A stretch of 45,259 nucleotides of DNA, from IMG/VR virus record IMGVR_UViG_2734482549_000013, one strand, 5' to 3'. Every line of letters starts with the position of its first letter. The first letter of the stretch is position 1. Positions 2,794 to 43,500 of this stretch are shown here, piece after piece. Under the pieces are notes generated by a model that had not been told where the DNA came from, searched no databases, and worked only from the letters and a program-made list of their open reading frames with translations. Source of the DNA: a virus. Taxonomy: Duplodnaviria; Heunggongvirae; Uroviricota; Caudoviricetes. The position numbers were made by a program, and so were the translations under genes.

Positions 2794-5386
2794 TTGCATA
2801 TTCCTTAGCCCAGCGGGGCAGTGATAACGTCTTAATAGCTGGCCATTCATCGGTATTGAGGCAGTCAGCCAGGGTTCGCAGATTGCGGTGATATTCCAGC
2901 TGACCTGCCAGTTTTGCTTCTTCGCCCATCATGAAAATTTCAACCGGATAACGTCCGCATTCAATAGTTGTGCTGGCAACCAGAAAAACGAAAGTTGGCT
3001 GCACTCCAAACTGTGCTTCATAACCGTCACTGTAGAATGCATCCTGAACGTGATAGCGGTAGTCGTAATAAGCGGTTTTGAATCGTTGAATATCCGCCGT
3101 AGTTTTCACGTCCATGATCCAGTGAAATTCAGGGATAATTTTGTCCGGACGGCACCGACACAAAATTGCTGTTTCAGGATCTTCCCAGTAAATTGATGAT
3201 TCAGCGTGTCCGGCGCTTTCAACAAGCCATTGCCCCAGCGGCAAAGCCATAACGCTCTGATACATGAGTTCAATTTTCCGGCCTTCTTCGGCAGTGATAA
3301 CCGTTTTTCCTGTGCTTGCGCATTCCCTCAGAAACGCTTTCTCTTCTTCTTTTCCGGAGTTTGTCCGGCGGTTAAATTCAGGTGCTACGATAAAGCGGTT
3401 ACTGAATTCTTCCGGCTCAAGTACCCGGCAGTGGAAAGCGGTTCCTAAATCGAGCGTTTTTGTCTTTGTGGTGTCCACGGGGGCATTTTTACGCCACAAA
3501 TACAGTGCCGGAGTATCAGCAATGTCATCGAGCTGAGACTTACTGACACCGGGACCCGCGTGGTAATTCTCATTCGAAATTCCGTAATAAATACCTGGCT
3601 CTATGTCTTCTACGATTACGGGATCTGCGACTTCGCCAGTTTCATCACTGCAATCGCGATGCGGATCGCTGCCAGCATTCTCATTGTGCGGATGTTCAGC
3701 GCCTTCCATTTCCTCCGGATCATTTTCCTTAGCTTCAACCTGACTCTCTTCATCGAATGTTTCCTGGTATGTTGCGTCGCCCATCACCGCACCACAGTCA
3801 GGGCAGTTATCCCCGCCAGTCTGGCCGCAGGCATTGCAGGCTATTTCCGGTTCCTGTTGCACTACTGGCTCAGGTTGATTCATATCCGGGCTGGTTTTTT
3901 CCGTTTCTGGCTGGTTCTGGTACACACAATCGCGAGTCTGGATCCCCTTTACCCATTTCGGATCGTTCGGGTCGCTAATTCCGTCAACAAATTCACCACG
4001 TGATGCAGCAAGCAATTTATCGGCATCGACAGGATTTTTTGATGGAATGTTTTTCCGGGCTTCATGGAGTTCTGCCCGCAGTTCCTGATATTTCGCATCA
4101 ACAGAATTTACCTGTGACTGAGCATCCAGCGGCTGCGTGTCCTGATGATGTTCAGTTGCGTCCGGTTCCATTGTTTCAGCCTCTCCCTGTTCAACTGCCG
4201 TTGTTCCAGATGGTTGCGGTTTTTCTTCATCATCCTGTTTTCCTTCTTCTGTTACTCGCTGCGGCATCGGGGCAGAGGAGCGACCGCAGGCAATATCCAC
4301 GATTTCCGGATCAGGGTTGGCATGATCGGTTTCAGTCAGTACTTTGTTCAGATATTCAGTGACGTGCGCGGGGATGACCTCGATCCCAATTGGTGCTTCT
4401 TTTACGGACGCAACCACGATGGCGCGGGAATAATCCAGCCCGCCAGGCATGGTGATGAATTTGTCGCGGAAAACAGAAAAGGGCGGTTTATTTTCAGCGA
4501 TAATTTCCTCAATGCGTTTAGCGTGTGCCGGATGAAGGTTATAGATGTCCAGATCCATTGAACGGGCCAGTACGCCAGTGGCTACGTCCCGCGCCAGTGA
4601 CGTCAGATCGTGTACGAAACCTTCGCCGCGATCGGTGAGGTTTCCGCCGCCAGCATTAGCACCGGAAGCCGTGCGAGTGATGTGTGAAACACGATTACCC
4701 TTCATCCACTCTTTTGTCAGCAGTCCTCGATCGGTGTAGTCAGCGTTCAGGTATGCTTCGAAAAAAGCAGTTATCAGTCCCAGGTTTGAATTACCAGGAT
4801 TAGGGAAAACTTTGTCAGTGTCACGAACCAGTTTGTGGAGTTCGCGAATTTCCAGCGGGTCGAGCAGGCTGGTTTTGTGGGAAACAGCCAGGGCAGTAAC
4901 AGCCGGTAGTTCTTCAGCCCGAGCAATGTGTAATGCCTGGAGTCCGTCGCGTGAAACGTGCGTTACCGGTTTTTCGCTGCCGTGTTGAGCAAGCCAACGA
5001 ATGGGCAGTTCCTGGCCAGAAATTGGGAGTAGCATATTCTCCTCAATCTCAGTCATGTCTTCGCCGTTGACGTTGGTATTGCCTTGATAGTGAGCGTTGT
5101 CTGGTGCTGCTCCCGGTTTTAGTTCCCATGTCATGGAGTCTTTGCTGAGTTGATAGCGTTCACTCCAGGTAAAATCGATCTCACCTTCAGCGGGCAGGTC
5201 ATTAACGACAGGAAAATTCGTGGCAACAGCTTTAAAATAGCTGCTCAGTTTTTTACCTGACTTAACGATCAGGTAGTCCAGAGTGGCACAGGTCGATTCA
5301 AAATCGTTGCTTGCCCACAGGACGACGTCAGGTTCACCGGATGATTTTTTCGCTTTCCGTAACAGGAAGAGTGGTTTTGTGCTCAT
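2786..5386 (-). CDS. recE: RecE exonuclease VIII, 866 aa
   Basis: 866-aa minus-strand ORF; N-terminus [30 protein letters not shown] recalled as RecE; directly upstream of recT. Confidence 0.9.
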
Positions 5387-5487: not shown

Positions 5488-5763
5488 TCAGATTTCACCT
5501 TTTAATTTCATTGCAATTAGAGTTGCCAGAAATTCGGCTTTTTTTTCTGCGGGCAGATTCTTTCCGATATGCACCAGGCACATTTTTTTGACACCTTCAT
5601 CAAGTGTTTTTACGTTGCCTGATGGACCATCGATATCAACCACAGTGAATGGGGTTTCTTTATTTTCTGTTTTAATTACGTAGCCAATGCGCTTTCCTTC
5701 CAGATTCACCTCGTGAACAATGTCATCGGTAGTTACAACAGTGGCTTCATAATTGGTAATCAT
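5488..5763 (-). CDS. racC: RacC, small Rac prophage protein, 91 aa from MITNYEATVV
   Basis: Sequence recalled as RacC; position upstream of recE. Confidence 0.75.
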   Translation of the reverse strand: MITNYEATVVTTDDIVHEVNLEGKRIGYVIKTENKETPFTVVDIDGPSGNVKTLDEGVKKMCLVHIGKNLPAEKKAEFLATLIAMKLKGEI

Positions 5764-5837
5764 GTTTTTCTCCTTAATTAAGGTTGAGCGAATACCTGCC
5801 ATTTCTGGCATAAATTCAGTTTCGAATAGTCAATTAA

Positions 5838-6014
5838 TTAAAGTTCATGTGCCATCTGGTCTTTTTCGGCACAAGCTTCACTGCAATATTTTCTCGGTTC
5901 GTCTTTTGATAAAATCCCGTGCATGAAGTGAAGCATTCTTTCAATAGCTTTGCTTTCTTCAACGTCTTTTTTGCAAAGGTGGTAAGCACATTTTATTTTC
6001 TTAGTCATCACCAT
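5838..6014 (-). CDS. ydaE: YdaE-like small Cys-rich protein, 58 aa ([58 protein letters not shown])
   Basis: Manual translation; start overlaps kilR stop (ATGGTGATGA); not in ORF track because under 60 aa. Confidence 0.55.
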
Positions 6015-6229
6015 GACTCCGCCTTTACAGGTAAACCATCACGACCGAGGAAGACTTTAATCATGCGGTCAGTAATGCATGTTTTTGTGGTCAGGTTACG
6101 AATATATAGTTTTCGCTTTTTAATATTGTTTGCCGAGGCAATATATGTCCGGCCTTCATGAAGAACATAATCGCCAGGAGTCACACACTGACGTGGTATT
6201 TCATCAGTTCCGAAGTGATGTGCAATCAT
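6008..6229 (-). CDS. kilR: KilR, FtsZ-targeting cell-division inhibitor, 73 aa from [10 protein letters not shown]
   Basis: Sequence recalled as KilR; position between sieB and ydaE. Confidence 0.8.
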
Positions 6230-6670
6230 AATTATCTCCATTTTTACAAATGAACTTTGTTGATGCGGTGCCTGGTGCCTCCAGGTGACTGCAACCAGTT
6301 AACAATTACAGTCGGCTTTCCCACCCAAACCAATAAGGACTAACATGACTTTTAACTGTGCCACGTGCGCTTAGCCGCATTCACCGCATCACAAAATTCA
6401 CTTTAAAAAGGGCGGACATCAGCCGAACTTCAAGAAAAAAACTGATGCCGCCAGGACTACACACAGCAATGTCGTTATTTACAACCGGAGGCGCACTCCC
6501 ACCATTTAAATTTAACAGACAAGACCGACTCTTTATGGATATCGGAAATGCGCCTTCGTGTTGTGCCCGGTTTTATTTCACCACCTCCGGGCTTCGGTGG
6601 TCTCGGCTATACCCCTACAGCGAGAGCTTGTGTTAACATTTCAATACCCTTACAGTTGAGAGTTATTGAT

Positions 6671-7159
6671 ATGTTGGATGTATTTACTCCATTGTTGAAA
6701 CTTTTTGCTAACGAGCCACTCGAAATACTTATGTATACGATTATCATTTTTGGTCTCACTCTCTGGCTGATACCGAAAGAGTTTACTGTCGCATTCAATG
6801 CTTATACTGAAATACCTTGGCTCTTTCAGATTATCGTTTTTGCCTTTTCTTTCGTGGTCGCCATTTCCTTCTCAAGATTGCGAGCACATATTCAAAAGCA
6901 TTATTCATTACTACCAGAGCAACGAGTATTGCTTCGTTTATCTGAGAAAGAAATCGCTGTATTTAAAGATTTCCTTAAAACAGGAAATCTTATTATCACT
7001 TCTCCTTGCCGTAACCCGGTTATGAAAAAATTAGAACGGAAGGGCATCATTCAACATCAGAGTGATAGCGCAAACTGTTCTTATTATCTCGTCACCGAAA
7101 AATACTCCCATTTTATGAAGTTATTCTGGAACAGCAGGAGTAGACGTTTTAATCGTTAG
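6671..7159 (+). CDS. sieB: Superinfection exclusion protein B, 162 aa from MLDVFTPLLK, membrane protein
   Basis: Internal start of track ORF 6548..7159; hydrophobic N-terminal segments; sequence recalled as SieB. Confidence 0.85.
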   Translation: MLDVFTPLLKLFANEPLEILMYTIIIFGLTLWLIPKEFTVAFNAYTEIPWLFQIIVFAFSFVVAISFSRLRAHIQKHYSLLPEQRVLLRLSEKEIAVFKDFLKTGNLIITSPCRNPVMKKLERKGIIQHQSDSANCSYYLVTEKYSHFMKLFWNSRSRRFNR

Positions 7160-7311
7160 CTTACTGTGTGCTTCTCCAACCATCGGCGCGCACCAGTTTC
7201 GGTTTTAAATGTTTTGCTTTTGGTATACGTCATGGCAGTGAACGTTCCATCCTGGTTGGGGAACACGCCGCACACCAGGGATTCGTTGTTGCCGAGGTCG
7301 ATTTTTTGCAT
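7156..7311 (-). CDS. ydaG: YdaG-like small protein, 51 aa (MQKIDLGNNESLVCGVFPNQDGTFTAMTYTKSKTFKTETGARRWLEKHTVS)
   Basis: Manual minus-strand translation; stop overlaps the sieB stop region; not in ORF track. Confidence 0.5.
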   Translation of the reverse strand: MQKIDLGNNESLVCGVFPNQDGTFTAMTYTKSKTFKTETGARRWLEKHTVS

Positions 7312-7321
7312 TTTGCGAATC

Positions 7322-7504
7322 TCACATCTTGTTGCTGTGTATAGCGACTTCTGCCTGCCAGAGATCCCAGTCGTTGCTGCGTAAAGCCTGCACAGCCTGG
7401 TTGTAAGTGATACCGCAACAATCCATCAAATACTGAACTACTTCGTAATGCACCATCTTATCTCTCCCCTTAACGCCGGGTGGCGGAACTGAAACCTGCT
7501 GCAC
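7322..7504 (-). CDS. ydaF: YdaF-like small protein (start uncertain; internal Met at 7456 gives MVHYEVVQYLMDCCGITYNQ...)
   Basis: Track ORF; first gene of the leftward early operon downstream of the racR-distal promoter region. Confidence 0.5.
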   Translation of the reverse strand: MQQVSVPPPGVKGRDKMVHYEVVQYLMDCCGITYNQAVQALRSNDWDLWQAEVAIHSNKM

Positions 7505-7620
7505 TGCAAAATCTGAACCCTGCCGTCATGTTCATACGCCTCGGGCTGGCTACTTAACCCCTGACCACTGCCTGGTAACTCGAAGTATTGCCCTGCGTTC
7601 TGTGGGGCGGGGTGGGTTGG

Positions 7621-7680
7621 TAGGTATATAATGTACTTTGTGTTCATTGATGTAAAGTACTATAAGTACATTTTGTGTGT
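7621..7680. promoter_or_regulatory. Candidate operator/promoter region upstream of ydaF with repeated ATGTACT / AAGTACT / AAGTACA motifs and a TATATAAT stretch
   Basis: Direct reading: ATGTACT at 7631-7637, AAGTACT at 7655-7661, AAGTACA at 7664-7670; same heptamer recurs in the racR-ydaS intergenic region. Confidence 0.35.
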
Positions 7681-7746
7681 AAAAAAATGAGATGGGATAA
7701 AGTGAAGCACAAACCCGGAGGGGGACGCTACCGGATTTATGCTGGT

Positions 7747-8184
7747 TTAAGAGGCTTTTTGTTTTTTCTTTCGTGCTAGCTCTTCGTAAATTGCATTGTA
7801 CTTCTGTTTTTTCTCCTCAAGAGTTTTTAAAAGTTCATCTGTCTCACTGTCAGGGAGCTCGTCCAGAAGGTCAATGATGATTTTTTGTCTTGGATTTAAC
7901 TCCTGATAGAAACGTACCTGTCCACTTTCTTCTGTATCCTCTCCCAAAAGATAGGTTGGTGTTGTTCCAATGAGTGTTGCTAATTCCCTTAATTTCTCTC
8001 GGCGAGGAATTGTTTCGCCATTAAACCATTTGCTAACCGCTTTTGGTGTTAATTTCATTCGACGGGCAATTTCTGCCTGCCTTCCATGTTGTTCATAACC
8101 AGCGTTTTCACAGGCTAGCGCAAGCCTACTGGCGAACTCTTTACGCGCTTTATCTTCATGAACCATAAGTTCAATGATATTCAC
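7747..8184 (-). CDS. racR: Prophage repressor, XRE/cI-like helix-turn-helix protein
   Basis: HTH-like segment GRQAEIARRMKLTPKAVSKWFNG; divergent from ydaS; start could lie further upstream at a non-ATG codon. Confidence 0.8.
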   Translation of the reverse strand: MNIIELMVHEDKARKEFASRLALACENAGYEQHGRQAEIARRMKLTPKAVSKWFNGETIPRREKLRELATLIGTTPTYLLGEDTEESGQVRFYQELNPRQKIIIDLLDELPDSETDELLKTLEEKKQKYNAIYEELARKKKQKAS

Positions 8185-8245
8185 TCTTGAATGTACTGTC
8201 AGTTCTGTTATAGCATGTACTCAAAGTTCACATTGTGAGGGTGAT
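8185..8245. promoter_or_regulatory. racR/ydaS divergent control region with direct repeats and palindromes (candidate operators)
   Basis: ATGTACT at 8191-8197 and 8215-8221; palindrome ACTGTCAGT at 8195-8203; perfect palindrome TCACA-T-TGTGA at 8228-8238. Confidence 0.45.
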
Positions 8246-8500
8246 ATGAACCAGAAAACACTTGAAGATGTAATCAAAACTGTTCGCGTTTCTGTTGTGG
8301 CCGACGTTTGTGGTGTCAGCCAAAGAGCAATCTACAAATGGATGGATAACGGAAAATTGCCTCGCACAGAATATACCGGCGAAACAAATTACGCTGAAAA
8401 AATCGCTCATGCATCAAACGGATTATTTTCTGCTGATGTAATTTTAACTATTGGCAGAAATAAAACTACTACGAAAAAGCTGATGGGAGTTGATTCATGA
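8246..8500 (+). CDS. ydaS: Cro-like HTH protein YdaS (start may be further upstream)
   Basis: HTH-like segment VADVCGVSQRAIYKWMDNGKLP; divergent from repressor; stop overlaps ydaT start (ATGA). Confidence 0.7.
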   Translation: MNQKTLEDVIKTVRVSVVADVCGVSQRAIYKWMDNGKLPRTEYTGETNYAEKIAHASNGLFSADVILTIGRNKTTTKKLMGVDS

Positions 8501-8919
8501 AAATCAAGCATGAGCACATCGAGTCAGTGTTGTTAGCCCTGGCAGCCGAAAAAGGGCAGGCATGGGTAGCCAATGCCATTACTGAAGAATATCTGCGCCA
8601 GGGGGGCGGCGAATTGCCCCTGGTACCAGGCAAGGACTGGAATAATCAGCAGAATATCTATCACCGTTGGTTGAAAGGTGAAACGAAAACGCAAAGAGAA
8701 AAAATTCAGAAGCTGATCCCAGCAATTCTGGCAATCCTTCCGCGCGAGCTGCGTCACCGACTCTGCATCTTCGATACCCTGGAACGCCGTGCATTACTGG
8801 CGGCGCAGGAAGCGTTAAGTACGGCAATTGATGCGCATGATGATGCAGTCCAAGCCGTTTACCGGAAAGCGCATTTCAGCGGCGGCGGGTCTTCCGACGA
8901 TTCTGTCATTGTTCATTAA
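8497..8919 (+). CDS. ydaT: YdaT, 140 aa, co-transcribed with ydaS
   Basis: Sequence recalled as YdaT; overlapping start with ydaS stop. Confidence 0.8.
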   Translation: MKIKHEHIESVLLALAAEKGQAWVANAITEEYLRQGGGELPLVPGKDWNNQQNIYHRWLKGETKTQREKIQKLIPAILAILPRELRHRLCIFDTLERRALLAAQEALSTAIDAHDDAVQAVYRKAHFSGGGSSDDSVIVH

Positions 8920-8931
8920 GCAAAAGTTTCC

Positions 8932-9789
8932 ATGCTGTTTGTGCTTATTCTAAGCCACCGGGCAGCATCATACGGGGCAATTATGGCCGCATTACCATAC
9001 ATGCAACTGTACATAGCTGATTACCTGGCTGACACCATGCATTTGTCAGCAGAGGAGCATGGTGCGTATTTGTTGCTGATGTTCAATTACTGGCAAACAG
9101 GAAAGCCAATACCTAAAAACAGGCTGGCAAAAATTGCCCGTCTGACTAACGAGCGATGGGCTGATGTTGAACCATCCTTGCAGGAGTTTTTTTGCGATAA
9201 CGGCGAGGAATGGGTGCATCTTCGGATTGAGGAAGATCTGGCATCAGTCAGGGAAAAATTAACCAAAAAATCAGCCGCAGGAAAAGCATCTGTTCAGGCC
9301 AGAAGAAGCAGAAAGGAAGCAGATGTTCAAACAAAACAAGAGAGAAATTTAACAGGTGTTCAAACAGATGTTGAAGTGGTGTTTGAACATGATGTCAACA
9401 CAAAGGCAACTAATAAAGATACAGATAAAGATCTAAAAACAGATCCCCCCCTAAATCCCCCCCGGGGGAATCGAGGTGTCAAAAAGTTTGACCCTCTGGA
9501 TATTGCTTTGCCGAACTGGATTTCTGTCTCGCTTTGGCGTGAGTGGGTTGAATTTCGCCAGGCATTGCGAAAACCGATTCGAACGGAGCAGGGCGCTAAC
9601 GGGGCGATACGGGAGCTGGAAAAATTCCGCCAGCAGGGTTTTTCACCTGAGCAGGTGATTCGACACAGCATCGCCAATGAATACCAGGGCTTGTTCGCGC
9701 CGAAAGGTGTTCGACCTGAGACGTTACTCCGACAGGTTAACACCGTCTCGTTACCGGATAGTGCGATCCCGCCAGGCTTCAGGGGGTAA
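8932..9789 (+). CDS. ydaU: Replication initiation-like protein YdaU, 285 aa
   Basis: Position (O-like slot upstream of DnaC-like helicase loader); sequence recalled as YdaU. Confidence 0.75.
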   Translation: MLFVLILSHRAASYGAIMAALPYMQLYIADYLADTMHLSAEEHGAYLLLMFNYWQTGKPIPKNRLAKIARLTNERWADVEPSLQEFFCDNGEEWVHLRIEEDLASVREKLTKKSAAGKASVQARRSRKEADVQTKQERNLTGVQTDVEVVFEHDVNTKATNKDTDKDLKTDPPLNPPRGNRGVKKFDPLDIALPNWISVSLWREWVEFRQALRKPIRTEQGANGAIRELEKFRQQGFSPEQVIRHSIANEYQGLFAPKGVRPETLLRQVNTVSLPDSAIPPGFRG

Positions 9790-9795
9790 CTGACC

Positions 9796-10542
9796 ATGAA
9801 AAATATTGCGACAGGCGACGTTCTTGAACGTATCCGCAGACTGGCCCCGTCACATGTAACCGCGCCATTCAAGACGGTAGCGGAGTGGCGCGAGTGGCAA
9901 CTTTCCGAAGGCCAGAAACGTTGTGAGGAGATCAACCGTCAGAATCGTCAGTTGCGGGTGGAAAAAATTCTGAATCGCTCTGGCATCCAGCCATTGCACC
10001 GCAAATGCTCGTTTTCGAATTACCAGGTGCAGAACGAAGCGCAGCGATACGCGTTGAGTCAGGCGAAATCCATCGCTGATGAACTGATGACCGGGTGTAC
10101 AAATTTTGCGTTCAGCGGAAAACCTGGTACCGGGAAGAACCACTTAGCGGCAGCTATCGGGAATCGCCTGCTGAAAGACGGTCAGACAGTGATTGTGGTT
10201 ACCGTGGCTGATGTTATGAGTGCCCTGCACGCCAGCTATGACGATGGGCAGTCAGGCGAAAAATTTTTGCGGGAACTATGCGAAGTGGATCTGCTGGTTC
10301 TTGATGAAATTGGCATTCAGCGCGAGACGAAAAACGAGCAGGTGGTGCTGCACCAGATTGTTGATCGCCGGACAGCGTCGATGCGCAGCGTGGGGATGCT
10401 GACAAACCTGAACTATGAGGCCATGAAAACATTGCTCGGCGAGCGGATTATGGATCGCATGACCATGAACGGCGGGCGATGGGTGAATTTTAACTGGGAG
10501 AGCTGGCGTCCGAATGTCGTCCAGCCAGGAATTGAGAAGTAA
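9796..10542 (+). CDS. ydaV: DnaC/IstB-like AAA+ helicase loader, 248 aa
   Basis: Walker [11 protein letters not shown] and Walker [10 protein letters not shown] read directly from the ORF. Confidence 0.85.
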
Positions 10543-14895: not shown

Positions 14896-15708
14896 AACCA
14901 CCTCCTCCAAAACATGCATTAAAAATGCATCTTTTGGAGGGTTATGTCAAGCTGTTATGAAACACATAATTGATATGTTGATTAGAGGAGAAGATAGAAT
15001 AAATATGGTTGTTTTTCGTATAACTATTTGTTTTACTTTTAGTTTATGCATTCTGTGTGTTAGGAATAAGTTATTAAAGTTTAATCAAAAAATCTCGATG
15101 TAGTCCACATAGATTACTGTTACTGAACCTTATTGTGTGTATTAGTTGTGTTCTGAAATTTCAGCTTAATTATTTATGATGTATTTTTTAACGATAAATA
15201 TTTTCCCAGGATACCTTTACTGTGTATATAAATAAATTATATACGCATAAATAATGTAAAGGCGTCCTTTTAGATATATCTTATCAAATGTTAATGACTT
15301 GAGTGGGAAATATGATTCCAGCAACTTATCATGTGGCTACTTTATAAAAATAATGCCCATATAAAACAACAAGCGAAAAGGATTACGGATAAAAAAGGAG
15401 CGAGATGTGCGAACTTGTTATTTTCCATGTTTAACCACCTTAAATAATTGATGATGACGGGATGATTGCATCTGTAATGCTTTTATTGAAATGTTATGAT
15501 AAAAAAGAACTTTTGCATAACATTAAAATGTAATTTATCTAATCGTTTTTAATAATAAGTGTCGTATTTCTATCCTTGTACCAGCTATTTGATATGTAGT
15601 GTTTGTTCATGCTATGTGGGGCTTTACACCATAGCCAGTTTATTTATACTTTATTCGTCAGCCTGAACAACTGGCATCTGCTGCGCTGCGCCATCGAGAG
15701 ATTGAGAA

Positions 15709-17590: not shown

Positions 17591-18181
17591 GGGCTGGTTT
17601 ATTGTATGCCAAATGATTATTAAAAAGGTTGTGTTAATAACAAGATCCGAAATAATATGCCTGCATATTTTTATCTTGCTTATATTCTGCATATTGTGCA
17701 TAGCAGGCTCATCCCTGCAATCAAAACTGTATGATGAGTATTTTTTGTTTTCCTTTTTTCCAGTCATCTGATGATGACCTGCTTCTTTTTAATCCGGATC
17801 GACATCAGTTTTTTAAGATAATTCCTGCGAGTTATATGCATAAATGCCACAAACTCCGCATTTTATGTGGTTGGGAGTTGCCGGGCGCGCAGTGAGTTTG
17901 CTAAGAAAACTCCTGCATGGTGAATCCCCCTGTGCGGTGGGGTGATACCATTAACCTTTTCTGTCGCCGACAGGTATCACGAACATTTTGTTCACCGGGA
18001 GGCACCCGGCACCATGCACTTCAATAGATTCTCTCCACATTATGGATATTCTTTCAGAATATCCCACGCAGACTTTGTGTAAATGTTAACAAATGTGCGT
18101 TTTATTTGATCTGATTCGCTGTTTGAGCGTCCAAAACAACGGTATATATAATCCTTTACTATATGACATATGTGAGGAAAA

Positions 18182-19407: not shown

Positions 19408-19623
19408 ATGAAATCCATGGACAAAATTTCAACAGGCATTGCCTACGGCACCTCCGCAGGCAGTGCTGGCTACTGGTTTTTACAGTTGCTCGATAGAGTA
19501 ACTCCGTCACAGTGGGCTGCAATCGGTGTGCTGGGTAGTCTGGTATTTGGCCTGCTGACGTACCTGACAAACCTTTATTTCAAGATTAAAGAAGATAAGC
19601 GCAAGGCTGCGAGAGGTGAATAA
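19408..19623 (+). CDS. Class II holin / pinholin, phage-21 S-like, 71 aa with dual-start MKSM motif
   Basis: Sequence [26 protein letters not shown] ... [36 protein letters not shown] recalled as S21-like; two transmembrane segments; GGAGGTGAGG Shine-Dalgarno. Confidence 0.8.
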
Positions 19624-20123
19624 TGCCTCCATCATTACGAAAAGTCGTTGCTGCTGCTATTGGTGGCGGAGCAATTGCTATAGCATCAGTGTTAATCACT
19701 GGCCCAAGTGGTAACGATGGTCTGGAAGGTGTCAGCTACATACCATACAAAGATATTGTTGGTGTATGGACTGTATGTCACGGGCATACAGGAAAAGACA
19801 TCATGCTCGGTAAAACGTATACCAAAGCAGAATGCAAAACACTCTTGAATAAAGACCTTGCCACTGTCGCCAGACAAATTAACCCGTACATCAAAGTCGA
19901 TATACCGGAAACAACGCGCGGCGCTCTTTACTCATTCGTTTACAACGTGGGTGCTGGCAATTTCAGAACATCGACGCTTCTTCGCAAAATAAACCAGGGC
20001 GATATCAAAGGCGCATGTGATCAGCTACGTCGCTGGACATATGCTGGCGGTAAGCAATGGAAAGGTCTCATGACTCGTCGTNGTGAGATTGAGCGTGAAA
20101 TCTGTTTGTGGGGTCAGCAATGA
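19623..20123 (+). CDS. SAR endolysin (lysozyme with N-terminal signal-anchor-release domain), 166 aa; contains one ambiguous base (n at 20082)
   Basis: Gly/Ala-rich weakly hydrophobic N-terminus ([20 protein letters not shown]) followed by lysozyme-like domain; start overlaps holin stop (TAATG). Confidence 0.8.
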
Positions 20124-40569: not shown

Positions 40570-43500
40570 ATGGGTAAAGGCAGCAGTAAGGGGCATACCC
40601 CGCGCGAAGCGAAGGACAACCTGAAGTCCACGCAGCTGCTGAGTGTGATCGATGCCATCAGCGAAGGGCCGGTTGAAGGTCCGGTGGATGGATTAAAAAG
40701 CGTGCTGCTGAACAGTACGCCGGTGCTGGACAGTGAGGGGAATACCAACATCTCCGGCGTCACGGTGGTGTTCCGGGCAGGTGAGCAGGAGCAGTCACCG
40801 CCGGAGGGGTTTGAATCCTCCGGCTCCGAGACGGTGCTGGGTACGGAAGTGAAATATGACACGCCGATCACCCGGACCATCACGTCGGCAAACATTGACC
40901 GACTGCGTTTTACCTTCGGTGTACNNNNNNNNNNNNNNNNNNNNNNNNNNNNNNNNNNNNNNNNNNNNNNNNNNNNNNNNNNNNNNNNNNNNNNNNNNNN
41001 NNNNNNNNNNNNNNNNNNNNNNNNNNNNNNNNNNNNNNNNNNNNNNNNNNNNNNNNNNNNNNNNNNNNNNNNNNNNNNNNNNNNNNNNNNNNNNNNNNNN
41101 NNNNNNNNNNNNNNNNNNNNNNNNNNNNNNNNNNNNNNNNNNNNNNNNNNNNNNNNNNNNNNNNNNNNNNNNNNTCATCGATGTGAAACAGTGCTACCCG
41201 AACACGGCACTGGTCGGCGTACAGGTGGATTCGGAGCAGTTCGGCAGCCAGCAGGTGAGCCGTAATTATCATCTTCGCGGGCGCATTCTGCAGGTGCCGT
41301 CGAACTATAATCCGCAGACGCGGCAATACAGCGGTATCTGGGACGGAACGTTAAAACCGGCATACAGCAACAACATGGCCTGGTGTCTGTGGGATATGCT
41401 GACCCATCCGCGCTATGGCATGGGGAAACGTCTTGGTGCGGCAGATGTGGATAAATGGGCGCTGTATGTCATCGGCCAGTACTGTGACCAGTCGGTGCCG
41501 GACGGCTTTGGCAGCACGGAGCCGCGCATCACCTGTAATGCCTGGCTGACCACACAGCGCAAGGCGTGGGATGTGCTCAGTGATTTCTGCTCGGCGATGC
41601 GCTGTATGCCGGTATGGAACGGGCAGACGCTGACGTTCGTGCAGGACCGACAGTCGGATAAGGTGTGGGCCTATAACCGCAGTAATGTGGTGATGCCGGA
41701 TGATGGCGCGCCGTTCCGCTACAGTTTCAGCGCCCTGAAAGACCGCCATAATGCCGTTGAGGTGAACTGGATTGACCCGGATAACGGCTGGGAGACGGCG
41801 ACAGAGCTTGTGGAGGATACGCAGGCCATTGTCCGTTACGGTCGTAACGTCACGAAGATGGATGCCTTTGGCTGTACCAGCCGGGGGCAGGCACACCGCG
41901 CCGGGCTGTGGCTGATTAAAACGGAACTGCTGGAGACGCAGACCGTGGATTTCAGCGTGGGTGCTGAAGGGCTTCGTCATGTACCGGGCGATGTCATTGA
42001 AATCTGCGATGATGACTATGCCGGTATCCGCACCGGCGGGCGCGTGCTGGCGGTGAACAGCCAGACCCGGACGCTGACGCTCGACCGTGAAATCACGCTG
42101 CCATCCTCCGGCACCACGCTGATAAGCCTGGTTGACGGGCAGGGGAATCCGGTCAGCGTGGAGGTCCAGTCCGTCACCGACGGCGTGAAGGTAAAAGTGA
42201 GCCGTGTTCCTGACGGTGTTGCTGAATACAGCGTGTGGGGGCTGAAGCTGCCGACGCTGCACCAGCGATTGTTCCGCTGCGTGAGTANNNNNNNNNNNNN
42301 NNNNNNNNNNNNNNNNNNNNNNNNNNNNNNNNNNNNNNNNNNNNNNNNNNNNNNNNNNNNNNNNNNNNNNNNNNNNNNNNNNNNNNNNNNNNNNNNNNNN
42401 NNNNNNNNNNNNNNNNNNNNNNNNNNNNNNNNNNNNNNNNNNNNNNNNNNNNNNNNNNNNNNNNNNNNNNNNNNNNNNNNNNNNNNNNNNNNNNNNNNNN
42501 NNNNNNTTCAGATACAGCGTAACGGTGGCTGGGTGACGGAAAAAGACATCACCATTAAGGGCAAAACCACCTCGCAGTATCTGGTCTCGGTGGTGGTGGA
42601 TAACCTGCCTCCGCGCCCGTTCAGTATCCGGATGCGCAGGATGACACCGGACAGCACCACAGACCAGCTGCAGAACAAAACGCTCTGGTCGTCATACACC
42701 GAAATCATCGATGTGAAACAGTGCTACCCGAACACTGCACTGGTCGGCGTACAGGTGGACTCGGAGCAGTTCGGCAGCCAGCAGGTGAGTCGTAATTATC
42801 ATCTTCGCGGGCGCATTCTGCAGGTGCCGTCGAACTATAACCCGCAGACGCGACAATACAGCGGTATCTGGGACGGAACGTTAAAACCAGCATACAGCAA
42901 CAACATGGCCTGGTGTCTGTGGGATATGCTGACCCACCCGCGCTACGGCATGGGGAAACGTCTTGGTGCGGCGGATGTGGACAAATGGGCGCTGTATGTC
43001 ATCGGCCAGTACTGCGACCAGTCAGNNNNNNNNNNNNNNNNNNNNNNNNNNNNNNNNNNNNNNNNNNNNNNNNNNNNNNNNNNNNNNNNNNNNNNNNNNN
43101 NNNNNNNNNNNNNNNNNNNNNNNNNNNNNNNNNNNNNNNNNNNNNNNNNNNNNNNNNNNNNNNNNNNNNNNNNNNNNNNNNNNNNNNNNNNNNNNNNNNN
43201 NNNNNNNNNNNNNNNNNNNNNNNNNNNNNNNNNNNNNNNNNNNNNNNNNNNNNNNNNNNNNNNNNNNNNNNNNNNNNNNNNNNNNNNNNNNNNNNNNNNN
43301 NNNNNNNNNNNNNTTGACCCGGATAACGGCTGGGAGACGGCGACAGAGCTTGTGGAGGATACGCAGGCCATTGCCCGTTACGGTCGTAACGTCACGAAGA
43401 TGGATGCTTTTGGCTGTACCAGCCGGGGGCAGGCACACCGCGCCGGGCTGTGGCTGATTAAAACAGAACTGCTGGAAACGCAGACCGTGGACTTCAGCGT

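Follow-up and report, generated by a model that had tools for sequence, protein, structure and literature searches.

Putative HK022-type operators on either side of the repressor gene in an exchanged immunity cassette of a Rac-type prophage

The immunity cassette and its genes

Two divergent genes lie at the center of the locus described here, which is part of a 45,259-nucleotide stretch of viral DNA (hereafter the window). The repressor gene, on the reverse strand (7747..8166), encodes a 139 aa protein that consists of an HTH domain like those of the HK022 and 933W CI proteins, a flexible linker, and a DicA-like helical tail, without an S24 peptidase domain. The cro-like gene, on the forward strand (8246..8500), encodes 84 aa that are 62% identical to HK022 Cro (E = 2e−34). 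The repressor start is the ATG at 8166, as in RefSeq and in keeping with the invariant "MV" N-terminus common to HK022 and 933W CI. Because of this start, the gap between the two genes is 79 bp (8167-8245) and not the 61 bp of the original prediction, which had assumed a GTG start at 8184. The names racR and ydaS given to the genes in that prediction also had to be abandoned. The repressor has only a 33-residue HTH match to RacR (E = 1e−4) and the cro-like protein matches YdaS at E = 0.028, so neither is an orthologue.

The surrounding backbone is that of the Rac prophage, with ydaF, ydaG, kilR, and sieB to the left and ydaT, ydaU, and ydaV to the right (YdaT is 99% identical to K-12 YdaT). 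A BLASTN against K-12 Rac aligned 5500-7622 at 99.3% and 8491-10313 at 99.4% identity, with no match between. The intervening 868 bp (7623..8490) hold the putative left operators and promoter (OL/PL), a likely terminator, the repressor, the putative right operators (OR), and the cro-like gene. The interior of this cassette aligns instead with HK022, at 82% identity over the OL/PL DNA (7627-7687) and at 70% over the DNA of the cI N-terminal domain, OR, and cro (8006-8416). By these alignments, an HK022-type cassette appears to have replaced the K-12 RacR/YdaS cassette in a Rac prophage. It is present as a unit in 1047/5426 complete E. coli genomes (19%).

The left mosaic junction coincides with the predicted PL start near 7621, and the right junction lies at the YdaT-box (8490..8507, TTGATT-CATGAA-AATCAA), which has the ydaT ATG in its spacer and is the only exact match in the window. 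The box is identical to the CP-933P YdaT site (TTGATT-N6-AATCAA) and 1 nt from the footprinted K-12 YdaT-box (PMC11879457). Given the position of the junctions, promoters and operators would travel with the repressor and leave the transcribed genes in place, and the cassette would be a clean case of lambdoid modular exchange.

K-12 Rac and the window share divergent repressor and cro-like genes and an operator over the repressor ATG (PMC9638921), but the repressors and cro-like proteins of the two are unrelated in sequence and the K-12 operator is TAGGC-N3-GCCTA. Two of the K-12 dyads lie downstream of racR, matching the left pair here, as a predicted Rac OL pair within NC_000913.3 1419620-1419680, and four lie at or upstream of the racR start. 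No RacR-type operator (T/ATAGGC-N3-GCCTAT/A) was found in the switch region described here. The one hit with a single mismatch elsewhere in the window, at 19433, is at chance level. Conversely, K-12 Rac has no HK022-type dyad. Both site sets were thus exchanged together with the repressor gene. Since the switch is not RacR/YdaS, K-12 findings on RacR operators and C-protein cross-talk would not be transferable to cassette-bearing strains.

Putative operator dyads and predicted promoters

The original prediction pointed to the heptamer ATGTACT at 7631, 8191, and 8215 (forward strand), with AAGTACT at 7655 and AAGTACA at 7664. All are present at those positions, and a further ATGTACT, the fourth in the flanks of the repressor gene, lies on the reverse strand at 7665-7671. 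The repeats do look like genuine operator sequences, but the heptamer is one half-site of a 17-bp dyad (consensus ATGTACT-N3-AGTACAT, with an invariant G-W-A-C core) and not a whole site. Five such dyads form putative operators, two to the left of the repressor gene (OL1 and OL2) and three to the right (OR1, OR2, and OR3). The repeats reported earlier belong to four of them; the fifth, OR3 at 8158-8174, had been missed.

On the left, a promoter scan predicted PL on the reverse strand (7628..7656), with a −35 of TTTACA (7656..7651), a 17-nt spacer, and a −10 of CATTAT (7633..7628). HK022 has a homologous layout in the alignment, TTTACA/CATCAT, with the same −35. OL1 (7631..7647, ATGTACT-TTG-TGTTCAT), which is homologous to HK022 OL, lies between the −35 and the −10 and overlaps the −10; OL2 (7655..7671, AAGTACT-ATA-AGTACAT), whose start is 24 bp from that of OL1, overlaps the −35. 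Downstream of the predicted PL are a ydaG-like gene (7456..7322), ydaF (7311..7156), and onward. A leftward operon with ydaF was expected and is found, except that its first gene is the ydaG homologue and ydaF is the second. The HK022 region has OL1-3 and OFR, whereas an OL3 and an OFR-like site were not found here: no third left-hand site is present at ±24, 33, or 53 bp from OL1 or OL2, and a candidate at 7622 was rejected (three mismatches, and a left half without the GWAC core). An RNA in the PL leader analogous to HK022 putL was likewise rejected. Folding of the 165-nt leader is no more stable than that of its shuffles (z = +1.16), Rfam gave no match at the gathering threshold, and BLASTN similarity to HK022 ends with OL/PL.

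Between OL/PL and the repressor stop codon, which it follows directly, is a reverse-strand hairpin (7707..7743) that is likely to be the terminator of the repressor transcript. Its folding energy is −19.4 kcal/mol (z = −5.6), a value that none of 200 shuffles reached, and in the relatives whose repressor is 89% identical the stem is kept with a different loop. The U-tract is weak and the hairpin was not called by a simple terminator scan.

On the right, OR1 (8215..8231, ATGTACT-CAA-AGTTCAC) overlaps the end of the −10 and the start (near 8223) of the predicted PR, and OR2 (8191..8207, ATGTACT-GTC-AGTTCTG) lies between its −35 and −10. PR (8187..8216, forward strand) was assigned by alignment to the annotated pR of phage 24B (TTGCAA, 18 nt, TAATAC) and to HK022 (TTGACT...CATAAT/TAATAT). 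It has a −35 of TTGAAT (8187-8192) and a weak −10, either TAGCAT (8211-8216, 18-nt spacer) or TATAGC (8209-8214, 16-nt spacer), and falls below the threshold of a generic promoter scan. The cro-like gene, ydaT, ydaU, and further genes follow. OR3 (8158..8174, ATGAACC-ATA-AGTTCAA) is centered on the repressor ATG (8166..8164). The promoter scan also predicted a PRM-like promoter on the reverse strand (8174..8202), with a −35 of CTGACA (8202..8197) within OR2, a 17-nt spacer, and a −10 of TATCAT (8179..8174). OR2 thus overlaps the −35 of this promoter, and its start would be approximately the A of the repressor ATG, which predicts a leaderless mRNA. The geometry is that of the annotated 24B pRM, which starts 1 nt before the ATG, and leaderless repressor transcripts have been shown for paaR2 of CP-933P (PMC8630535) and racR of K-12 (PMC9638921). 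A consensus scan for a PRE-like reverse promoter inside the cro-like gene found none, a result to be read knowing that activator-dependent promoters match the consensus poorly.

Ranking and conservation of the sites

Matrices built solely from operators of other phages, namely the GenBank-annotated OR1-3 of 24B (933W type) and the HK022 sites, return the same five dyads. With the 24B matrix as annotated, four sites rank 1-4 of 45,245 positions and OL1 ranks 17; with the OR2 register of 24B corrected, and with the HK022 matrix, the five rank 1-5. In these last two OL1 ranks 4-5. OL2 ranks first with both the HK022 and the as-annotated 24B matrix and third with the corrected 24B matrix, OR3 ranks second, second, and fourth in the same order, and OR1 ranks 2-3 across matrices. 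Other hits (15594, 15031, 5832, and 10408 among others) score lower and were set aside as background, and at 15594 and 15031 the half-site cores proved to be broken on inspection.

HK022 and loci with repressors of 100, 89, 65, and 62% identity all have sites at −65, −41, and −8 from the repressor ATG plus the downstream pair, with unchanged spacings of 24, 33, and 24 bp. The diverged relatives were found by protein search and contig look-ups; a scan of genome contigs with the repressor protein alone gave one identical Shigella copy and nothing more. The Salmonella relatives carry a HigB/HigA-like pair downstream of their repressor; the two left sites follow on the far side of this pair, at a distance of about 900 bp, and keep their 24-bp spacing. 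In a comparison of 50 half-sites, taken from 25 distinct sites, every one had G3, A5, and C6 and either A or T at position 4; position 7 is mostly T or C, and the central triplet and flanks vary. The invariance of the core is partly circular, as the sites in this comparison and in the HK022 matrix were first located with a consensus derived from the window; neither the 24B matrix nor the fixed offsets share this circularity. The half-site pattern is the same as that measured for the 933W repressor, namely G, A/T, A, and C followed by T or C (PMC3317979).

These data bear on whether the repeats are functionless similarities that arose by chance in AT-rich intergenic DNA. Counted over the window, the repeats alone could suggest so: bare ATGTACT is not enriched (5 found vs. 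3.9 expected), nor is the degenerate AWGTACW (14 vs. 15.5), and short palindromes such as those in the original prediction are common. The copies are clustered, however, with 4/5 exact ATGTACT in the intergenic DNA on the two sides of the repressor, 369 bp in all (binomial P ~2e−8). The motif search proposed earlier therefore fails for the heptamer and succeeds for clustering and for the extended dyad: AWGTAC-N5-GTWCA with ≤1 mismatch has 8 matches in the window vs. 1.74 expected, a number reached in 0/100 shuffles, and seven of the eight fall in the two flanks of the repressor gene. Together with matrices from other phages that put the sites on top, the retention of sites and spacing in diverged relatives and HK022, and the joint exchange of both site sets with the repressor gene, this effectively refutes a chance origin, to which we give almost no weight. 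The palindromes are a different matter. ACTGTCAGT (8195-8203) and TCACATTGTGA (TCACA-T-TGTGA, 8228-8238) are where they were reported, and as exact palindromes between divergent genes they could be separate operators of a second regulator, e.g., a Cro-like protein or YdaT. Tritos and Shigella both have TCACATTGTGA, the 89% relatives retain its 4-bp arms (TCACGCTGTGA), and the equivalent region of CP-933P has two kinds of repeat (PMC8630535). Palindromes as such are not unusual, though. With four-bp arms there is one per 246 bp and with five-bp arms one per 943 bp, so that 1.17 and 0.33, respectively, are expected by chance in the 79-bp gap. ACTGTCAGT is simply the center of OR2 (positions 5-13) and reads ACTATCAGT in the Salmonella relatives and HK022, where only the 3-bp ACT/AGT operator arms are kept. 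TCACATTGTGA is missing in the Salmonella relatives (TCATTTTGGAG) and HK022 (TCACCACAGGA); its left arm is supplied by the right half-site of OR1 and the other by sequence just upstream of and overlapping the Shine-Dalgarno. The known YdaT site differs and is located at 8490-8507. A second regulator of this kind is thus very unlikely. As regards the palindromes as operators, ACTGTCAGT belongs to one only as its center, and TCACATTGTGA is probably incidental and no operator of its own.

The dyads could also be genuine sites that now serve mainly the Cro homologue, or relics of a decayed switch to which the short S24-less repressor no longer binds productively. The protein does lack the C-terminal domain of HK022 and 933W CI, Rac-type prophages are often defective, and in the near-identical copy of strain FORC_081 ydaU is frameshifted and the replication genes are fragmentary. 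Yet repressors from E. coli to Salmonella share this short architecture, in which the recognition helix is invariant and the tail conserved. The protein is 100% identical to the annotated CI of Tritos, a deposited complete phage genome, and is present at 95-100% identity in the 19% of complete E. coli genomes noted above. In every relative the core is intact at all five sites, which speaks for continuing selection, and the S24-less short repressors RacR, PaaR2, and DicA are functional (PMC9638921; PMC8630535). We therefore consider decay or use mainly by Cro to be improbable as well. It is highly probable that the ATGTACT repeats are half-sites of five 17-bp dyad operators in an HK022-type lambdoid cassette that replaced the RacR/YdaS cassette of Rac.

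Repressor architecture and proposed regulation

The N-terminal domain of the repressor is 47% identical to that of HK022 CI, and residues 1-73 are 51% identical to the 933W-type CI. The recognition helix reads PKAVSKWF (PKAISKWF in HK022), with K42, S45, K46, W47, and F48 invariant; K42 and K46 correspond to modeled base contacts in 933W (PMC3317979). The C-terminus has no PF00717 (S24) match, although relatives of 235-240 aa do carry S24. In the alignment, a short helical tail of ~50 aa stands where HK022 CI has its S24 domain. This tail resembles that of DicA (29% identity over 112 residues, including tail residues 88-137, E = 5e−15), PHROG 5736 covers residues 27-139 including it, and in an AF2 model residues 92-138 form a helical hairpin. 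Searching solved structures by sequence gave only a weak match to the N-terminal domain of P22 C2, and Foldseek against the PDB gave generic Xre-type HTH folds, none with an E-value ≤0.001. We found no paper on phage Tritos or on RefSeq accession WP_000233320.

The locus has the dyad sites, three predicted OR sites, an OL set, a CI-like HTH, and the Cro homologue of a lambdoid switch of the HK022/933W type, and lacks S24; it also has the HTH_3 domain and short helical C-terminal tail of a DicA-like short repressor. The operator system thus appears to be HK022-type, yet the repressor, lacking the S24 domain, does not seem to be a canonical CI. DicA itself, from the Qin prophage, differs in its recognition helix and operators, and its N-terminal domain is not HK022-type.

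We infer repressor binding, occupancy order, cooperativity, OL-OR looping, and the promoter activities from the arrangement of the sites. Repressor dimers on OR1 and OR2, whose centers are 24 bp apart, would occlude PR and silence the cro-like gene, ydaT, ydaU, and genes beyond. Dimers on OL1 and OL2, also 24 bp apart, would occlude PL and silence the ydaG-like gene and ydaF, and kilR and recET through read-through. OR3, which covers the repressor start codon and the predicted leaderless transcript start, could mediate negative autoregulation at high repressor levels and may be the preferred target of the Cro homologue. When RacR is depleted in K-12, Rac genes are derepressed in both directions, leftward and rightward (PMC11014345; bioRxiv 10.64898/2026.09.06.749655). 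The original idea of operators flanking the repressor gene for rightward and leftward operons is strongly supported computationally, by homology to mapped operators, matrices, conservation, and the cassette swap, while its gene names, dyad extent, and number of sites needed correction.

In lambda, cooperativity and looping of CI depend on the S24/oligomerisation domain, and presumably the same is true of HK022 CI. With this domain missing, pairwise cooperativity and looping of the 139-aa repressor are uncertain. For HK022 CI, binding is cooperative within OR and within OL, and the two are joined by looping (PMC8053113). The HK022 geometry is fully kept here, with 24-bp pairs at OR (OR1-OR2) and OL (OL1-OL2), a 33-bp offset from OR2 to OR3, OR3 over the cI start codon, and ~550 bp from OL to OR. 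A tentative possibility is a repressor of natural chimeric origin, in which an HK022-type DNA-binding domain is joined to a DicA-like tail, with pairwise cooperativity and OL-OR looping through a non-S24 module, insensitivity to RecA-stimulated self-cleavage, and at least partial immunity of carrier strains to HK022-type phages. Such immunity might extend to the ~19% of E. coli strains with the cassette because the recognition helix is nearly identical to that of HK022 CI.

The operator family is already known from HK022 and 933W, and in this respect the locus is expected biology and an ordinary member. What is gained is a precise, testable map of putative operators and promoters for a cassette found in about one-fifth of complete E. 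coli genomes and in phage Tritos. Compared with HK022, the outer half-site bases here are mostly as in ATGTACT, where HK022 often has TGAACC, and the cassette sits within a Rac-type prophage in which YdaT is the CII analogue. Like the 933W/24B group, the locus has five natural sites, three in OR and two in OL, with OR3 overlapping the cI start codon. The 933W site is a 15-bp symmetric sequence with determinants identical to the invariant core here, and the S24-bearing repressor reportedly binds adjacent sites non-cooperatively (PMC3317979). The 933W outer bases are CGTAC vs. ATGTAC here, and the recognition helix begins with S in 933W and with P here.

CP-933P of E. coli O157:H7 likewise has a short S24-less CI-like repressor, PaaR2, with a leaderless transcript and OR operators. 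Past the repressor operon it has a second set, OL/PL, and the repressor and a Cro-like protein regulate both sets (PMC8630535). Its operators differ, being 18-bp palindromes with the half-site GTTTAGTAA, of which there are none in the window, and the inverted repeats number four at OR and three at OL. A toxin-antitoxin pair lies between its repressor and OL, an arrangement also seen in the Salmonella relatives of the present cassette.

Probable operator dyads around the repressor gene

Judged from its sequence, the switch is an HK022/933W-type operator system and, as a kind of element, textbook; all testable defining features of that type were found save the canonical S24 domain of the repressor. 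The original prediction had taken repeats around the repressor gene for its operators. The repeats are real and its outline is right, as seen from matrices, conservation and a cassette swap, but its details, the racR/ydaS gene names and a 61-bp gap, are corrected below.

The heptamer ATGTACT is located at 7631, 8191 and 8215, as predicted, with AAGTACT at 7655, AAGTACA at 7664 and the palindromes ACTGTCAGT (8195-8203) and TCACATTGTGA (8228-8238). A fourth ATGTACT copy is on the minus strand (7665-7671). Neither ATGTACT (5 found vs. 3.9 expected) nor the degenerate AWGTACW (14 vs. 15.5) is enriched in the whole 45-kb window. Four of the five exact ATGTACT copies fall within the 369 intergenic bases flanking the repressor gene (binomial P ~2e-8); it is the clustering, not the window-wide count, that is non-random. 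As palindromes, ACTGTCAGT and TCACATTGTGA are nothing unusual, with ~1.17 four-arm and ~0.33 five-arm palindromes expected by chance in 79 bp. The window includes N runs, masked or unresolved, at 20082, 40925-41174, 42288-42506 and 43026-43313 (758 bases total).

A repeat search aligned the three plus-strand heptamers in register across 15 nt. Read as a dyad, the repeat unit is 17 bp, ATGTACT-N3-AGTACAT. The left sites are OL1 (7631-7647, ATGTACT-TTG-TGTTCAT) and OL2 (7655-7671, AAGTACT-ATA-AGTACAT), and the right sites are OR3 (8158-8174, ATGAACC-ATA-AGTTCAA), OR2 (8191-8207, ATGTACT-GTC-AGTTCTG) and OR1 (8215-8231, ATGTACT-CAA-AGTTCAC). OR3, whose central triplet is the repressor ATG (8166..8164), had been overlooked, and ACTGTCAGT, though present, is just OR2's nine central bases. 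The starts of neighbouring sites are 24 bp apart for both OL1-OL2 and OR1-OR2, and 33 bp apart for OR2-OR3. Allowing up to one mismatch, AWGTAC-N5-GTWCA has eight matches (1.74 expected; 0/100 shuffles reach 8), seven of them within these five sites. We found neither a third OL site nor an OFR-like site.

Independent matrices and conservation

Position matrices were built from the operators of other phages in order to keep the window-derived motif out of the scoring. With a matrix from the three GenBank-annotated OR sites of 24B, an Stx phage of the 933W type, four window sites rank 1-4 of 45,245 positions and the fifth ranks 17. The annotated 24B OR2 (1463-1477 of the retrieved locus, L009; HM208303.1 11665-11679) appears to sit one base out of the dyad register that OR1 and OR3 share, and moving it by 1 nt betters the matrix; after this fix the five window sites hold ranks 1-5. 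They likewise rank 1-5 with a matrix from seven HK022 sites, which were originally found using the window-derived consensus. The located HK022 positions agree with the published layout, in which OL3 is 53 bp from OL2 and a further operator lies ~300 bp downstream of OR (PMC8053113).

Escherichia phage Tritos has an annotated CI that matches the repressor at 100% identity. Relatives retrieved with their flanks have repressors 89% (metagenomic), 65% and 62% (both Salmonella) identical. All of these, and HK022, carry dyads at -65, -41 and -8 bp from the repressor ATG and a downstream dyad pair 24 bp apart. In the 50 half-sites of 25 distinct sites, G3, A5 and C6 never change, position 4 is A or T without exception and T or C predominates at position 7, while the central triplet and flanks vary freely. 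Experiments on the 933W repressor gave this same half-site pattern: that protein has five natural sites in total and recognizes a 15-bp symmetric site with G, A/T, A, C, then T or C (PMC3317979). The recognition helix reads PKAVSKWF in the window, PKAISKWF in HK022 and SKGVSKWF in 933W; K42 and K46, the modelled base contacts of 933W (PMC3317979), are invariant.

The Salmonella relatives have a HigB/HigA-like pair (HigB toxin, HTH antitoxin; 3053-3720 of locus L006 and 3088-3755 of L007) that separates the repressor gene from the OL pair, which sits ~900 bp away with its 24-bp spacing intact. The paaR2-paaA2-parE2 arrangement of CP-933P is equivalent (PMC8630535). TCACATTGTGA, unlike the dyads, is not conserved among the relatives, where its counterpart is TCACGCTGTGA (89% relatives) or TCATTTTGGAG (Salmonella), with TCACCACAGGA in HK022. 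Its left arm is the outer half-site of OR1, and its right arm extends into the Shine-Dalgarno of the cro-like gene.

A swapped immunity cassette

A 61-bp gap between the repressor gene (7747..8166, minus strand) and the cro-like gene (8246..8500) presupposes a GTG start at 8184. The RefSeq start is ATG 8166 and the "MV" N-terminus is invariant in the repressor alignment, including HK022 and 933W-type CI, so the gap is 79 bp (8167-8245). The names racR and ydaS also fail: the repressor shares just a 33-residue HTH match with K-12 RacR (E = 1e-4), and the cro-like protein matches K-12 YdaS at E = 0.028 and HK022 Cro at 62% identity (E = 2e-34). YdaT is 99% identical to its K-12 namesake. The repressor, tail included, is 29% identical to DicA over 112 residues (E = 5e-15); its N-terminal domain is of the HK022/933W type and its short C-terminal tail is DicA-related. 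It has no S24 peptidase domain. Longer relatives (235-240 aa) have one, and the same N-terminal domain occurs both with and without S24. A low-confidence linker (residues 78-87) leads into the tail (~88-139), a DicA-like helical hairpin; structural neighbours of the tail were not informative.

By blastn, the window is 99.3% identical to K-12 Rac up to 7622 and 99.4% from 8491 on, with no match between, and the interior matches HK022 at 70-82%. An 868-bp immunity cassette (7623-8490) has thus been exchanged. On the left, the junction falls on the predicted PL start; on the right, it falls on the YdaT-box at 8490-8507, TTGATTCATGAAAATCAA (TTGATT-CATGAA-AATCAA), which has no other exact match in the window and whose spacer holds the ydaT start codon. 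This box is one base off the footprinted K-12 box (PMC11879457); the differing base is the first (ATGATT... in K-12), which gives identity with the CP-933P site. A PRE-like promoter activated from this box would necessarily fall in the foreign cro-like gene, where a consensus scan found no reverse promoter.

The K-12 cassette has RacR-type dyads (TAGGC-N3-GCCTA; PMC9638921) at equivalent places, two on the downstream side of racR with 25-bp spacing and four at the racR start or upstream of it (6 matches in K-12 vs. 1.25 expected; 0/200 shuffles). The RacR-type motif is absent from the window cassette and the HK022-type motif from the K-12 cassette. Thus, both site sets travel with the repressor gene, as would be expected if they are its operators. 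The RacR and PaaR2 switches work in the same way, but their proteins and operators differ, so the window switch belongs to neither type. We found no paper on Tritos or this repressor protein, and the site map is therefore apparently undescribed.

The cassette is present as a unit in 1047/5426 complete E. coli genomes. In Tritos (L003) and a further relative locus (L004) its left neighbours are Qin-type (ydfA/B/C-like, DicF sRNA, dicB), not Rac-type, so it circulates among different lambdoid backbones. In the annotation of Tritos, the right arm carries a Rha-family regulator and a replisome organiser.

Predicted promoters and regulation

A promoter scan predicted a minus-strand PRM-like promoter (-35 CTGACA 8202..8197, 17 nt, -10 TATCAT 8179..8174) with its start on the A of the repressor ATG, so that the transcript would be leaderless; in the 24B annotation, pRM starts one base ahead of the ATG. 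Leaderless repressor transcripts have been shown for paaR2 (PMC8630535) and racR (PMC9638921). The scan also predicted PL on the minus strand (-35 TTTACA 7656..7651, 17 nt, -10 CATTAT 7633..7628), covered by OL1 and OL2 and homologous to the HK022 PL region; its leader has no unusual structure. Alignment to 24B pR and HK022 places PR on the plus strand (-35 TTGAAT 8187-8192; -10 TAGCAT 8211-8216 or TATAGC 8209-8214), with OR2 between the hexamers and OR1 over the start. OR2 also overlaps the -35 of the predicted PRM.

Repressor dimers at OR1/OR2 and OL1/OL2 would switch off both lytic-type operons. OR3 may serve autoregulation and is probably where the Cro homologue would bind first. HK022 CI binds cooperatively, with OL-OR looping (PMC8053113), and RacR depletion in K-12 derepresses both Rac arms (PMC11014345; bioRxiv 10.64898/2026.09.06.749655), whose genes are the genes found here.

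Directly after the repressor stop codon is a minus-strand hairpin (7707-7743; dG -19.4 kcal/mol, z = -5.6) with a weak U-tract; in the 89% relatives the stem is kept and the loop is different. It is probably a terminator insulating PL from repressor-gene transcription.

In the ydaG-racR interval of K-12 Rac (2131-2168 of locus L011; NC_000913.3 1419630-1419667) the RacR-type dyads TAGGTAATGCCTA and TAGGCTATGCCTA, 25 bp apart, bracket a minus-strand TTGACA, with TATAGT further downstream on the same strand. This pair is the probable OL/PL of K-12 Rac, and would account for why RacR depletion derepresses ydaG, ydaF and kilR. The words ydaG, ydaF and "leftward" are absent from the two RacR/YdaT operator papers searched. 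Elsewhere in the window, plus-strand Rfam matches at gathering level identify the RalA antitoxin sRNA (1557-1735, 225 bits) and the sRNA STnc100 (17885-18071, 86.6 bits).
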